DNA of 7,230 bases from a virus (taxonomy: Duplodnaviria; Heunggongvirae; Uroviricota; Caudoviricetes): IMG/VR virus record IMGVR_UViG_2713897075_000011. One strand, given 5' to 3'. Position numbers and translations under genes: made by a program. Positions 1,449 to 7,230 of the stretch are shown here, one piece after another. The notes beneath the pieces were generated by a model. It worked only from the letters and a program-made list of their open reading frames with translations, ran no database searches and was not told the origin of the DNA. Within the stretch, counting starts at the first letter, position 1, and the number at the start of each line of letters is the position of its first letter.

Positions 1449-3782
1449 TTATGTCGCGGTGGTTTCGTCGCACCGGGGCAGCCAGTCGGCGTTGCTTTCC
1501 TCCCTGAGCGCAAGGTTCGTCTGCATCCCCTGATTTGTTCGCCGCCTGGCGTAATTCAGCCCGTACTCTTTCAGCATCGATGACAGCCCTTTGCCGAACA
1601 TGGTCAGGCTGAGAGTGTTCTTGTAGCCGTGCGCCTCCATGTAAACCAGATAGGCGTGATACAGGTACAGGCGCGGCTGTCGCGGGATGATATTCGCATT
1701 CCCCATGTACATACCGTCAGGCTCGGGCAGCGCCTCCAGATAGCCACAAAAATCGAATGTCGGGTCAGCGTCGCGTTTGATGCTGAGTGCCTCGTCGGAG
1801 TTCTGCTGCGACTGGAGCAGTGTTCGCGCGGTCATCGGGTCGCTGAACGTCTGCATAAGCTGGCGCACGATGACGGCCAGCTCCCGGGCGATTTTATCTT
1901 TCAGCGTCGGGTCACGCTCTTCCGGGGCAATCTGTTCCGGGAAGTGCATTATCACCCGGCGACGTGACACCCCGCCGCTGCGGTCGGTGAAGCGCATCGG
2001 ATTGTTGTTTACGGCCAGTATCACCGCCGGAATATGGGTGGAGTACGCATCGCGGTATTTCGGGTCAACGGAGACCGCATCCCCGCCGGTAATGGCCTTG
2101 AGTCCTGCCCCGTCACCGCTCCATTTTTCCTGGTCAGGCAGACGTATCAGCGAGAAGCCAATCAGCGCCGCGCGTTCGCGGGGGGATTCCAGCGTCTCGA
2201 TGGTGGCCGACGTGGCGTTATCTTCTCCGGCGAGCATGGTCGCAATTTCGGCCAGAATACTTTTCCCGCTGCCACCGGGACCGGTCACTTCGAGGAAGAG
2301 CTGCCAGTCATAACGGTTCGCCAGCACCATAAACAGCGCGGCGAGTATCACATCCCGTTTATCGGCGCGCGAACCGGCAGCGCGGTCGAGCCAGCGCCAG
2401 AAATTCGGCGCGTGCGTCTCCAGCGTTTCCCCCGCCACCGGCGGGGTGAAATCCACGTCGCACAGCGTGCGCAGCCAGTGCGTTTTGCTGTGCGGGCTGA
2501 ATATATTGCTTTTGGTATCAAGCACGCCGTTGCGAAAGCCAATCAGCCGCCGTGCCGGGGCGTCCTGCTGCGGAATAATCAGTTTCAGGGTGTCCACCAC
2601 CGAGGCAATTTTCCCCGATGAGAACGGGGCGCGCAGACGCTGGAACAGCCCGGCCACGTCGCGCGCAAAGTCCGACGGCGGAATGATTTTCCATATTCCC
2701 GCCTCATAGCGGGACAGGAGCTGCCCGTTCGCATCCACCGCCAGCGCTTCGCCGTAATGCTCATGCACCCGCATGGCTTTCTCACTGGTGCTCATGGCGG
2801 TAAATTCCGCCTCGCTCATGGTAGAGAAAGGGCTTTCAGCCGGTGGCCGGATGGCGTCATACATGGCTTTACGCATGGCCTCCCCGCCGTGCTGTGTATA
2901 CGCATCATTCCAGTCACCGAACACCGGCGGCAGGGCGACCACGCCCTCGCAGGACTCTGCGGCCGCAGACGCTTTGGTCTGGCCGTCGCCGTTAAGGTCG
3001 CGGTCGGCGGCAATGACAATCCGACAGGCCGGGAATTTGTGACGGGCAAGGCTCGCCAGAGAAAGGAGGTTCACGGAGGACAGCGCCACCATGACGGTTT
3101 CGCCGGTCAGGTGATGCACGGTGAGCGCGGTCGCGTAGCCCTCCGCTATCCACAGCCGTTTTCCCGCCTCTTTTTTCCCGTCGAGAATATGACACGCCCC
3201 TTTCACCTGACCGCCTTTCAGGGTGCGCTTGAGACCGTCCGCGTTAATGAGCTGGACGTTAACCAGTTCGCCGCTATCGTCATACAGCGGGACAACTAAA
3301 TCACCGGCGCGGTACGTCACACCGCCGGTTTTATGCAGGGTGGTGAGCGTCAGACATTCCCGGCCGGGGAAGCCCTTGCGGGTGAGGTAGGCATTGCCGG
3401 TGGCCGGGCGGGCTTTCTCCATCAGTTTTACGGCCAGCGCGGCGGCGGCTTTGCGGTCGGCCTCCGTTTCAGCCTCTGCGGCCACAGTCACCGCCGGGGA
3501 AACCGGCGGCAGGTTGCCGGTCACGGCGTTCACCTTCCCGGCCGCCTCTGACGGGGTCACGCCGAACACTTTCTCAACCAGTTTCAGACCGTCCCCCGCG
3601 CCGCACTGGTTACAGAACCACGTCCCGCGTCCCTCTTTATCGTCAAAGCGAAAGCGGTCGGAGCCGCCACACACCGGACAGGCCTGATGGCGGTTTTTAA
3701 TCACCTTTACACCCAGCGCCGGGAGAATGCGCGGCCAGTGGCCGCACGCCTGTTTGACGGTGTCCGTTACGTTCATTTTCAT
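1449..3782 (-). CDS. P4 alpha-type bifunctional primase-helicase (replication initiator), 777 aa
   Basis: ORF track. N-terminal zinc-binding motif CPVCGGSDRFRFDDKEGRGTWFCNQCG typical of phage primases; central Walker A TGPGGSGKS; same length as P4 alpha (777 aa, from memory) and N-terminus MKMNVT. SD GAGGGAG lies 9 nt upstream of the ATG at 3782. Iteron clusters flank the gene about 5 kb apart. Confidence 0.93.
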   Translation of the reverse strand: MKMNVTDTVKQACGHWPRILPALGVKVIKNRHQACPVCGGSDRFRFDDKEGRGTWFCNQCGAGDGLKLVEKVFGVTPSEAAGKVNAVTGNLPPVSPAVTVAAEAETEADRKAAAALAVKLMEKARPATGNAYLTRKGFPGRECLTLTTLHKTGGVTYRAGDLVVPLYDDSGELVNVQLINADGLKRTLKGGQVKGACHILDGKKEAGKRLWIAEGYATALTVHHLTGETVMVALSSVNLLSLASLARHKFPACRIVIAADRDLNGDGQTKASAAAESCEGVVALPPVFGDWNDAYTQHGGEAMRKAMYDAIRPPAESPFSTMSEAEFTAMSTSEKAMRVHEHYGEALAVDANGQLLSRYEAGIWKIIPPSDFARDVAGLFQRLRAPFSSGKIASVVDTLKLIIPQQDAPARRLIGFRNGVLDTKSNIFSPHSKTHWLRTLCDVDFTPPVAGETLETHAPNFWRWLDRAAGSRADKRDVILAALFMVLANRYDWQLFLEVTGPGGSGKSILAEIATMLAGEDNATSATIETLESPRERAALIGFSLIRLPDQEKWSGDGAGLKAITGGDAVSVDPKYRDAYSTHIPAVILAVNNNPMRFTDRSGGVSRRRVIMHFPEQIAPEERDPTLKDKIARELAVIVRQLMQTFSDPMTARTLLQSQQNSDEALSIKRDADPTFDFCGYLEALPEPDGMYMGNANIIPRQPRLYLYHAYLVYMEAHGYKNTLSLTMFGKGLSSMLKEYGLNYARRRTNQGMQTNLALREESNADWLPRCDETTAT

Positions 3783-5580: not shown

Positions 5581-5603
5581 AAAAAAAGACGCATGGCGCG
5601 TCT
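5581..5603 (-). terminator. Candidate intrinsic terminator in the leader downstream of the AlpA/Vis-like gene
   Basis: On the minus strand: stem AGACGC, loop GCCAU, stem GCGUCU, then UUUUUU (plus strand AAAAAAA-GACGC-ATGGC-GCGTCT). The stem is short (6 bp). Confidence 0.5.
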
Positions 5604-5730
5604 GGTGTCGCCTTGAAGTAACACGGGTTCCTACGCCCGGCTGTCGATTTTGCGACAGCGACAAAACTGTACCAGGAAACACACAACGGATGCAAGCCAG
5701 AAAAAGGGACTTTGTGAGAATGGCTCTGAT

Positions 5731-5997
5731 TCATGCGTCGTATTTCCGGTTGCGGTGCGCGACACGTTCTGCCATCCACGCCGTGATTTCAGACTGTAGC
5801 CAGGCGACATTTTTACCCCCTAGGGAAACCTGCGCCGGGAAAGCATTGCGGGCAATTAAATCGTAGAGCGTGGAACGGGACAGGCCGCACTGATGAATGA
5901 CTTCCGGGAGACGTAAAAAACGTTCCTGAGCCGGGGCTGAAACCGGCATCGGGTGCGTGCCAGTGGAGGAAGATGGTACTGATGAAACTGTGTGCAT
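5731..5997 (-). CDS. alpA: AlpA/Vis-family phage transcriptional regulator / excision accessory protein, 88 aa
   Basis: ORF track. Translation contains the AlpA-type helix-turn-helix [52 protein letters not shown] at 5997 is preceded by GAGGT with a 6-nt spacer. Same size and position as P4 vis (first gene of the leftward late transcript), from memory. Confidence 0.85.
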
Positions 5998-5999
5998 AA

Positions 6000-6056
6000 C
6001 GCTACCTCGTTAATATCCGCAGAGATCCGGACGTGTCCGTCCGGTATCAGGTAGCG
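6000..6056 (-). promoter_or_regulatory. Nested inverted repeats immediately upstream of the AlpA/Vis-like gene and overlapping its SD
   Basis: Outer arms CGCTACCT (6000-6007, includes the complement of the SD) and AGGTAGCG (6049-6056); inner hairpin CCGGACG-tgtc-CGTCCGG (6027-6044). Could sequester the SD in the mRNA or act as an operator. Confidence 0.45.
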
Positions 6057-6099
6057 CTCTATTTTGTGAATATTTTTTCTCAATGCAACAGGGGGAAAT

Positions 6100-6117
6100 T
6101 GTACAAAGCACGGGACA
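6100..6117 (-). promoter_or_regulatory. TGT-N12-ACA dyad upstream of the AlpA/Vis-like gene; candidate helper-activated late promoter (PLL-like)
   Basis: TGT at 6100-6102 and ACA at 6115-6117 with exactly 12 bp between. This dyad is the Ogr/Delta activator site centred near -55 in P2/P4 late promoters (established). The dyad centre is ~111 bp upstream of the ATG at 5997. Confidence 0.4.
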
Positions 6118-6149
6118 ACGGGTGCTGTTTTTTTACTCAAGACCATTTA

Positions 6150-6180
6150 AAGGCACTGGAAGGAGTTATAAGGCACTGGA
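6150..6180. repeat. 11-bp direct repeat AAGGCACTGGA x2 with 20-bp period
   Basis: Seen directly at 6150-6160 and 6170-6180, between the divergent promoters and the ori iterons. Confidence 0.5.
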
Positions 6181-6276
6181 GATTTCAAAAGTGAAATGCA
6201 AATTGATTTAATCACCATAAGAGCATGAATTAATAGGATATACCGCATAAAATTTACATTCGGGATGTTCAGACCA

Positions 6277-6378
6277 GTGAACAGTAGTGAACAGTTGGTG
6301 AACACTTCTTTCTCAACTGTTCACTCTTTAATTTATTGTTTTACTTATATTTTTATACTGAGTGAACAGTAGTGAATA
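6277..6378. repeat. ori-like iteron cluster with an AT-rich unwinding stretch
   Basis: GTGAACA at 6277-6283, 6287-6293, 6298-6304, 6362-6368; TGTTCAC at 6318-6324; degenerate GTGAATA at 6372-6378. AT-rich stretch 6325-6360 lies between the copies. Same heptamer as the cluster at 1308-1398, about 5 kb away, as for P4 ori and crr (about 4.5 kb apart, from memory). Confidence 0.75.
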
Positions 6379-6456
6379 GTTATTAGTAAAAAAACAAACA
6401 GAGTGAGGGGTTTACCTGCGACCTTTCTCTGGCCAGCCGGGTTTTTAAGTCCTGTT

Positions 6457-6474
6457 TGTGCCACGTCTGCTACA
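6457..6474 (+). promoter_or_regulatory. TGT-N12-ACA dyad upstream of the plus-strand gene; candidate helper-activated late promoter (Psid-like)
   Basis: TGT at 6457-6459 and ACA at 6472-6474 with 12 bp between. Dyad centre is ~83 bp upstream of the ATG at 6549, compatible with a -55 activator site and a short leader. Confidence 0.4.
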
Positions 6475-6548
6475 ACGGCAATGAATCGAGTTGTTGTCTG
6501 AGGGACGGCAGAATGGCGTCAGGTTGAAAACACAGAGAGAACCCGACG

Positions 6549-7230
6549 ATGAAACCAGATTTGTTTACCGCAGTAATGAAAACCATCGGCAGCACGCAGG
6601 ATGAGAACATCCGCACGGCCATTGACAGCGCACTGGATACCCTTAACGAGAAAGCAAACCAGAACGCAGAGGCCACGATAAATAACGCGCTTGAGGCATT
6701 CAGCAAGGCCAAATCCGCGCACACGGAAAACATGCTGAAACTGAATGATATTGATGCGGCTATTACCCGCAGCGAGAAAGAGCGTCAGAACGCCCTGAAT
6801 GAAAGTGCCGAAGCCGAACAGAACTGGCGTACCCGTTTTCGCGAACTGCGCGGCATGATGACCCCGGAACTGAAAGCCGAACACAGTCAGCGAGTGGCCG
6901 GTCGGGAGCTGGCGGAGGAATTCACCGCCCTGATTGATGAACTCAACGATGATAAGGCCAGTACCATGCTGTCCGCCTGTACATCAGGAGATAAGTACGT
7001 CGGCACGCATTTTACGGTGTTCTCTGCCTACTCCCGGAATGAGTGGGCGACCGTGATGAAAGACATCCCTCCCTCACTGGTGCGCGCATTTGCGTTACGT
7101 CTGCGTGAACTCGAAATGAAGGGGGAAGAACACCCTCACAACATTCTCATTCAGGAACTGGGGGAGAATGTACTGGCGCAAAGCAGGTATTACACATTCA
7201 ACATGGCGCAGGTGTCAACGACGGATGAAA
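6549..7230 (+). CDS. 5' portion (227 codons, no stop within window) of the first gene of the rightward operon; Sid-like by position only
   Basis: Not in the ORF track because it runs off the window. My translation from ATG 6549: MKPDLFTAVMKTIGSTQDENIRTAIDSALDTLNEKANQNAEATINNALEAFSKAKSAHTENMLKLNDIDAAITRSEKERQNALNESAEAEQNWRTRFRELRGMM... continuous to the window end. Composition is strongly helical (A/E/K/L-rich). Divergent from the AlpA/Vis-like gene across ori, as sid is in P4; P4 Sid is about 244 aa (from memory). Weak SD. Confidence 0.6.
   Translation, partial: MKPDLFTAVMKTIGSTQDENIRTAIDSALDTLNEKANQNAEATINNALEAFSKAKSAHTENMLKLNDIDAAITRSEKERQNALNESAEAEQNWRTRFRELRGMMTPELKAEHSQRVAGRELAEEFTALIDELNDDKASTMLSACTSGDKYVGTHFTVFSAYSRNEWATVMKDIPPSLVRAFALRLRELEMKGEEHPHNILIQELGENVLAQSRYYTFNMAQVSTTDE

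Follow-up and report, generated by a model that had tools for sequence, protein, structure and literature searches.

That the proteins Ogr and Delta activate PLL and Psid, the leftward and rightward late promoters of the satellite phage P4, is knowledge dating from the 1980s and 1990s, and the Delta/Ogr sites of the two promoters were reportedly mapped by Dale 1986, Deho 1988, Van Bokkelen 1991, and Julien & Calendar 1995. Other activators and promoters of this kind (186 B, PSP3 Pag, phiR73 delta and Serratia NucC) share the same PF04606 fold and the same type of dyad. The late promoters of phage P2 are bound by Ogr at inverted repeats whose centres lie near -55, according to a passage of PMC3152322 in which the mutational analysis of a late promoter of P4 is cited as well. 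The consensus of the Ogr site is TGT-N12-ACA and the Ogr motif is CX2CX22CX4C (PMC3931495), while Delta is a homologue of Ogr, and the two proteins both activate the late genes of P2 and of P4 (PMC8628076). The locus compared here with these systems, positions 5998-6548, belongs to a 7,230-nt stretch of viral DNA (Caudoviricetes; IMG/VR record IMGVR_UViG_2713897075_000011), the whole of which is called the window below; an earlier note, made from the letters alone, had pointed to two TGT-N12-ACA dyads in it. Homology to P4, the positions of the individual elements, their conservation among relatives, and RNA pairing and covariation lead us to read 5998-6548, with a probability of roughly 0.85, as the vis-ori-sid control region of a P4-family satellite, with two divergent activator-dependent late promoters, the origin of replication (ori) between them, and an inverted repeat in the leader of vis that would act as RNA.

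The window shares with P4 (record X51522, approximately 9030-9583) the order vis, PLL, type-2 repeats, six type-1 iterons, Psid and sid, and X51522 itself annotates ORF88/vis, the ori repeats and sid in this order. The columns of the dyads, the -10 elements, the spacings and the inverted repeat of the leader are also shared. At the DNA level the two differ, with approximately 68-81% identity: blastn finds 68.5% over 815 nt for window positions 5700-6600, and an alignment of 5980-6560 with X51522 from the start of vis to the start of sid gives a column identity of 81%. The vis gene (5731-5997, minus strand), an open reading frame (ORF) of 88 aa, encodes an AlpA-family regulator and excisionase and would be the first gene of the leftward late operon. 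Its product is 64% identical to P4 ORF88/Vis and matches Pfam PF05930 with E=5.8e-19, so that the minus-strand gene had rightly been called AlpA/Vis-like. On the other side of the region lies sid (6549-7230, plus strand), the capsid size-determining scaffold gene, which is recognized by P4 homology and carries the same label in RefSeq; the similarity here is lower, the window Sid showing 35% identity with that of P4 across 147 aa. A 777-aa ORF at 1449-3782, annotated in RefSeq as a primase-helicase zinc-binding-domain protein, is taken as the probable alpha because it occupies the alpha position of P4. The window reads, from its sequence, as a decayed P4-family satellite prophage of E. coli. 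Conservation of the region was followed in a family set obtained by scanning one genome per species, which yielded 80 loci encoding Vis relatives (57-94% identical) in hosts ranging from Citrobacter to Pantoea, Rahnella and Serratia; the counts at PLL refer to 78 loci and those at Psid to 76 with enough flanking sequence.

A pattern search places exact TGT-N12-ACA dyads at 6100-6117 (TGTACAAAGCACGGGACA) and 6457-6474 (TGTGCCACGTCTGCTACA), where the earlier note had seen them. Aligned with PLL and Psid of P4, both fall column for column on the dyads of that phage, the first on TGTTCAGGCTGTCTTACA (X51522 9133-9150; L001 1901-1918) and the second on TGTGTCAGGGCTGGCACA (X51522 9493-9510; L001 2261-2278). 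In P4 these dyads are the Delta/Ogr sites, reportedly footprinted, of PLL on the vis side and of Psid on the sid side. They do flank ori, as had been stated, six iterons in the P4 type-1 arrangement lying between 6117 and 6457. The view that there are just two dyads around ori is incomplete, however, for a third exact match at 6266-6283 (TGTTCAGACCAGTGAACA) and a degenerate one at 6495-6512 had been missed. With two further exact matches beyond the intergenic region, at 5606-5623 and 5668-5685, the whole window holds five against 1.53 expected. The match at 6266-6283 consists of an inverted pair of ori iterons (TGTTCAg...GTGAACA) and is probably no activator site. P4 has no dyad in the aligned position, this iteron-derived copy being extra in the window relative to P4, and in the relatives a dyad occurs there sporadically and is always built from iteron sequence; an activator role was therefore rejected in favour of a by-product of the iterons.

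The frequency of such dyads depends on the background that is chosen. The earlier estimate, approximately 0.1 by chance in some 550 bp, is reproduced with the composition of the whole window (0.12 per 551 bp) but is about half of what local dinucleotide-preserving shuffles of the intergenic region give, namely 0.22-0.26, with P(>=2) = 0.02-0.027 and P(>=3) = 0.001-0.002. Dyad counts alone are only moderately significant, being suggestive and not decisive, and the real proof is positional homology. It could be argued that the two dyads arose by chance, the intergenic region being rich in AT and TG/CA, the local expectation lying above the earlier estimate and one of the three matches being incidental. 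Against this stand the low probability of two or more matches in the shuffles, the alignment of both dyads with those of P4, and, at Psid, a fixed spacing in 53 of 76 loci around a free centre (see below), and a chance origin can be regarded as effectively refuted. The dyads had further been described as 'facing' the two genes, which does not hold because the motif is its own reverse complement; direction is set by the -10 elements.

At Psid, the predicted activator dyad at 6457-6474 (site I; TGTGCCA-N4-TGCTACA) is followed by a -10 element CAGAAT (6509-6514, plus strand), which is reached 52 nt from the start of the dyad; in P4 the same spacing reaches CACAAT. With the start of transcription taken 7 nt past the hexamer, at about 6521, the dyad would begin at -64 and have its centre 55.5 bp upstream of the start. 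At PLL, 51 nt lead from the start of the predicted activator dyad (6100-6117) to the -10 element CAAAAT (6061-6066, minus strand, read from 6066 to 6061), from which hexamer a start at approximately 6054-6057 is predicted, with the dyad beginning at -63 and centred at about -54.5. These distances, measured from predicted starts, equal those of P4 and those of the P2 promoters PP and PO relative to the measured starts annotated in RefSeq (3016 and 3127), the shared activator site of which (TGTGTCAGTGATAAGCCA) begins at -64 from both. A scan of 5950-6600 for the sigma-70 consensus, which is a weak test, found no such promoter on either strand, as is expected for activator-dependent promoters.

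The P2 pair, which is served by Ogr, resembles the window in having an inverted repeat at -55.5 from the annotated starts, in its activator dependence without a -35 element and in its divergent orientation. It differs in that PP and PO use one common site and start 111 bp apart, whereas the promoters of the window, approximately 465 bp apart, have their own sites and enclose ori. The P2 sites are also imperfect, with TGT-N12-CCA at PP/PO (3057-3087 in the P2 record, L084) and at PF and TGT-N11-ACA at PV (further coordinates are 10239-10266 and 17555-17583), while both window sites are exact and are therefore closer to the consensus than the sites of P2 itself. The P2 genome does contain five exact TGT-N12-ACA, all of them outside the annotated activator sites. 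Since the late promoters of P2 are inexact, an exact match is neither necessary nor proven to be sufficient.

In the family, the exact Psid dyad is found together with CA[G/C]AAT at start+52 in 53 of the 76 loci (CAGAAT in 43, CACAAT in 10), and a Pantoea group has the same arrangement of dyad and -10 with a shift of 1 nt. When sequences are anchored on the -10 element and the adjacent TGT only, 50 of 56 distinct sequences have TGT at -52 and 46 have ACA at -37. These 56 sequences give the consensus TGTGCCA-N4-TGCCACA, in which the four central positions are free; such conserved half-sites around a free centre are the signature of a protein-binding dyad, one that appears to be kept nearly universally in the family. 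A degenerate second site (TGTCTGAGGGACGGCAGA, 6495-6512) lies 38 bp downstream of site I, has one mismatch, is centred at -17.5 and overlaps the -10 element. In this the window differs from P4, where the second site is exact (L001 2299-2316), as it also is in nine other loci; it is one mismatch off in 43 loci, the window included, these counts referring to members with the canonical geometry. Just upstream of site I, a GC palindrome followed by a T-run (6428-6446, plus strand) gives a terminator-like match and is conserved across the family (ggccagccgggtttt).

The picture at PLL is different. The -10 block (AAAATATTCACAAAATAGAG) is conserved in nearly all 78 loci, with the hexamer CAAAAT in 52, and the core that runs from TTGTTGC through the -10 element and the leader is conserved almost everywhere, but the sequence upstream of TTGTTGC belongs to unrelated classes. 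In the window the conserved TGTTGC (6085-6090, minus strand) forms a weak -35 region and marks the junction to the variable upstream modules of the family. An exact N12 dyad is present at PLL in 10 loci (the window, L006, P4, L050, four Pantoea loci, L057 and L069), always with identical spacing to the -10 element. Approximately 18 others have TGT-N11-ACA or TGT-N13-ACA centred at -53 or -54, resembling P2 PV, and more than 40 have neither class of dyad, some of them carrying another palindrome instead (CAATGTTTG...CAAACATTG) and some nothing that can be recognized. Because the exact dyad is limited to 10 of 78 loci and neither class occurs in more than 40, control of PLL by Ogr/Delta is apparently no family-wide rule but a lineage-specific, modular input, unlike that of Psid. 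Even L004 and L005, whose Vis is 98.6% identical to that of the window, have a different upstream module at PLL. Counted from the predicted PLL start, the mosaic region of loci L004-L083 occupies approximately 30-80 bp on the upstream side. A second activator site near -18, as at Psid, was considered for PLL and rejected, with a one-mismatch TGA-N12-ACA at about -19.5 in the window and nothing convincing in P4.

If the locus works as its P4 counterpart does, PLL would fire leftward from approximately 6054-6057 into vis and the downstream left operon through alpha, and Psid would fire rightward from approximately 6521 into sid and, originally, into delta and psu too. Having no usable -35 element, each promoter would rely on its dyad, centred some 55 bp upstream of the start. 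The protein binding the dyad would be a small activator of the Ogr/Delta type with a Cys4 zinc finger, either the Ogr of a P2-like helper or the 80-aa Delta of the element, and would recruit RNA polymerase via the alpha subunit of the enzyme; Psid would have an additional, weaker activator site over its -10 element. The Delta of the element has a single Ogr/Delta finger (PF04606, E=5.6e-18; CX2C-X22-CX4C), in contrast to the 166-aa tandem form of P4, to each half of which it is 35-42% identical, and it is 50% identical to P2 Ogr. As the insertion sequence (IS) IS100 now lies between sid and delta, delta is no longer readable from Psid; a helper Ogr could act in trans on both sites.

A different protein might occupy the dyads, such as Vis, the alpha replication protein or a CRP-type host factor. 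Vis acts on both promoters in P4, the dyads flank ori, and the one extra dyad is made of alpha iterons. However, the same dyad stands at the same distance from the start at the late promoters of P2, which have no Vis, alpha or ori, and the alpha iterons differ from it in sequence (GTGAACA); binding by such a protein is considered very improbable. The CRP-type candidate was rejected because the CRP consensus has an N10 spacing, and PpsR/CrtJ, another possible reading of TGT-N12-ACA, was rejected on host range, these being proteins of purple bacteria. The identification of the dyad with the Ogr/Delta-type site of P2/P4 late promoters, already made in the earlier note, agrees with the published consensus (PMC3931495). 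Its prediction that both divergent transcripts are helper-activated gains support from the orthology with P4, the geometry of the promoters and the presence of an ogr/Delta-like gene in the element, and activation of both transcripts by helper or Delta, in the window as in P4, seems well supported by orthology.

The second part of the reading concerns the 5′ leader of the vis mRNA (5999-6057, minus strand), in which an outer stem (6049-6056/6000-6007) encloses an inner hairpin (6024-6048). Nested inverted repeats over the Shine-Dalgarno (SD) sequence of vis had been noticed before and ascribed to a possible translational or operator function; the arms are real and the translational alternative finds support at the RNA level, while the operator role is less likely. 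Specifically, the outer arms are complementary at 8 of 8 positions and, given the predicted PLL start, fall at the very 5′ end of the mRNA. The RNA from 6057 to 5985 (minus strand) has a minimum free energy (MFE) of -29.9 kcal/mol with z = -4.46, a stability reached by 0 of 200 shuffles. In this fold CGCUACCU pairs with AGGUAGCG, which holds the SD sequence (GAGGU, 6008-6004, 6 nt before AUG), and the inner hairpin of 7-10 bp lies between the outer arms. Applied to 69 distinct leaders of the family, RNAalifold independently predicts the outer helix GCUACC/GGUAGC, which is retained in 68-69 of the 69 and is 99.5% paired, with both partners changed (CG->UA) in nine sequences that belong to a single clade, and with four G.U wobbles. 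In the family alignment the structure with both helices has 89% of its cells paired, versus 16-39% with slid partners, and a covariation score of 0.148 versus 0.03-0.05 for the slid controls, four of the seven inner pairs changing on both sides. Of 68 leaders, 66 have their first six nucleotides paired with the SD region in the MFE fold. No Rfam match at E<=1 was found for the leader in 5900-6600.

The repeat at 6000-6056 could instead function at the DNA level, for instance as the operator through which Vis autoregulates PLL. It lies just downstream of the predicted PLL start, and Vis represses PLL in P4, so that a Vis site near PLL would be expected. This possibility is nevertheless judged unlikely: a separation of 41 bp between the arms is unlike the operators of winged helix-turn-helix or AlpA proteins, the 3′ arm is the SD sequence itself, and the variation in the family (the four wobbles, the outer CG->UA change and the changes in four of seven inner pairs) keeps the pairing, which is evidence of the RNA type. 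We conclude that the nested inverted repeat probably acts as RNA; with wobble pairs tolerated and 41 bp between the arms, a DNA operator is less likely. Pairing of the first nucleotides of the mRNA with the SD sequence of vis, with the inner hairpin between, would then have one or both of two effects, limiting translation of Vis and protecting the late-left mRNA at its 5′ end. In this the vis leader resembles bacterial leaders with a 5′-terminal stem-loop or a sequestered SD sequence, as it likewise pairs its 5′ end with the SD sequence in a conserved and covarying manner; it differs from that class in having no ligand-, small RNA- or temperature-sensing element and in being absent from Rfam.

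Only tentatively, and as something close to an even call, two features of the locus can be put forward as undescribed, namely (i) the 5′ stem of the PLL transcript that pairs with the SD sequence of vis, as a brake on Vis, a 5′ stabiliser or both, and (ii) the wiring of PLL to Ogr/Delta as a swappable module joined at TTGTTGC. As the activation of PLL and Psid by Ogr/Delta has long been known, the biological addition is small. What has been gained is that reading of the raw sequence proved able to recognise a P4-type late control region, and that the parts of the promoters are now mapped for an intergenic stretch left unannotated in enterotoxigenic E. coli (ETEC) genomes. The conserved pairing of 5′ end and SD sequence in the vis leader and the lineage-specific helper input at PLL, unlike Psid, are modest by-products, the latter of which bears on how satellites sense their helpers.

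Between the two promoters, the alpha-dependent ori (6277-6381, plus strand) comprises six type-1 iterons (GTGAACAGT) at 6277, 6287, 6298, 6315-6324 (inverted), 6362 and 6372, a series of three direct, one inverted and two direct GTGAACA copies that is also that of the annotated type-1 repeats of the P4 ori. The same iterons recur as crr-like TGTTCAC/GTGAACA repeats at approximately 1300-1400, beside the alpha gene, and a long near-perfect palindrome (CTCCGGTTTGGATCCG...CGGATCCAAACCGGAAG, approximately 1231-1268) adjoins this cluster. A further input to PLL is known in the form of P2 Cox, which activates the promoter via an upstream array of cox-boxes, TTAAA(G/C)NC(A/C) (PMC3936717; P2 RefSeq note), a Cox-activated PLL having at least about six boxes, 10-11 bp apart, upstream of it (PMC3936717). 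Such an array was not found upstream of the PLL of the window. At the position of the type-2 repeats and cox-boxes of P4 (6147-6180, plus strand) there are one perfect box, TTAAAGGCA (6147-6155), an imperfect one 20 bp away, and AAGGCACTGGA twice as a 20-bp-spaced repeat, in contrast to three tandem cox-boxes, annotated as 'type-2 repeats', at the aligned position in P4. Because the window has a single perfect box, a response of its PLL to P2 Cox is doubtful.

The stretch 5700-7230 is found in 15 E. coli genomes at >=99% identity, mostly 100%, many of them ETEC O6:H16. In one genome with 100% identity the gene order is tRNA-Leu, partial int, psu, the ogr/Delta-like gene, IS100, sid, ori and vis, followed beyond vis by an icd-like gene, the derepression protein, alpha, a second partial int, IS1 and a remnant of a bacteriophage exclusion (BREX) system. 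The core set of a P4-like element (int, alpha, epsilon, alpA/vis, sid, delta and psu) is all present, but the set is not intact, with sid truncated and int partial, and the element is a defective member of the P4 family, differing from P4 in being disrupted by IS elements. Specifically, sid is cut by IS100 just beyond the end of the window, its product ending at 228 aa versus 267 aa in intact relatives. The IS100 insertion (IS21 family; L003 10531-12609, beyond the window end at 7230) parts delta and psu from Psid. Next to the tRNA-Leu, psu directly adjoins the partial integrase gene without a cos/gop/beta/cII region, which appears to have been lost from the element.

Several points weigh against the reading of 5998-6548 as a P4-type control region. 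The exact PLL dyad is confined to few of the related loci, and the late promoter sites of P2 are inexact, PP/PO and PF having a single mismatch and PV an N11 spacing. As predictions from the -10 hexamers, the start sites may be wrong by 1-2 nt. As to the leader, its stability is ordinary in many relatives (median z -1.1), and the covariation of the outer stem comes down, in essence, to a single compensatory event within one clade. Finally, with sid truncated, IS100 between Psid and delta/psu, and the integrase partial, the Psid/PLL circuit may no longer be of importance to the host.

This last point can be taken further, in that promoters and dyads would be intact relics without a present role, or would lead to futile or harmful expression of vis to alpha upon infection by a P2-like phage. 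The damage to sid and the separation of delta and psu from Psid are in keeping with such a state, as are the partial integrase by tRNA-Leu, the junction of psu and integrase where cos/gop/beta/cII would lie, and the 100% identity in approximately 15 ETEC-type genomes, a pattern compatible with clonal descent instead of selection. On the other hand, the promoter elements, the leader, ori, vis, alpha and delta are all intact, and both sites would remain targets for a helper Ogr provided in trans. A relic state is therefore rated as possible but on the unlikely side, and it bears on present usefulness and not on the identity of the sequence as a P4-type control region.

At the other end of the window, an IS1 end (1-193) truncates an integrase gene (230-871), and an imperfect copy of a tRNA-Leu 3′ end (1071-1092; 14 nt identical) lies between this gene and crr/alpha. 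Because this copy separates the two, the integrase gene seems to belong not to the satellite but to a second, tandem island, with BREX remnants and IS5 beyond (L003 1-4400). Small ORFs in the intergenic region (6033-6194, 6083-6211 and 6147-6305) were discarded, no gene being annotated there in P4. Downstream of vis, Rfam matches indicate a C4 antisense RNA (the CI-type immunity RNA of P4; 5432-5519, minus strand, 84.5 bits) and isrK (5582-5659, minus strand, 74.2 bits). The two exact dyads in this part of the window recur at fixed offsets in approximately 15 related loci each; that at 5606-5623 lies inside isrK, and that at 5668-5685 has its centre 17.5 bp upstream of the 5′ end of isrK, which matches the geometry of the second site at Psid, its ACA falling in the likely -10 element of an early promoter (TACAGT).

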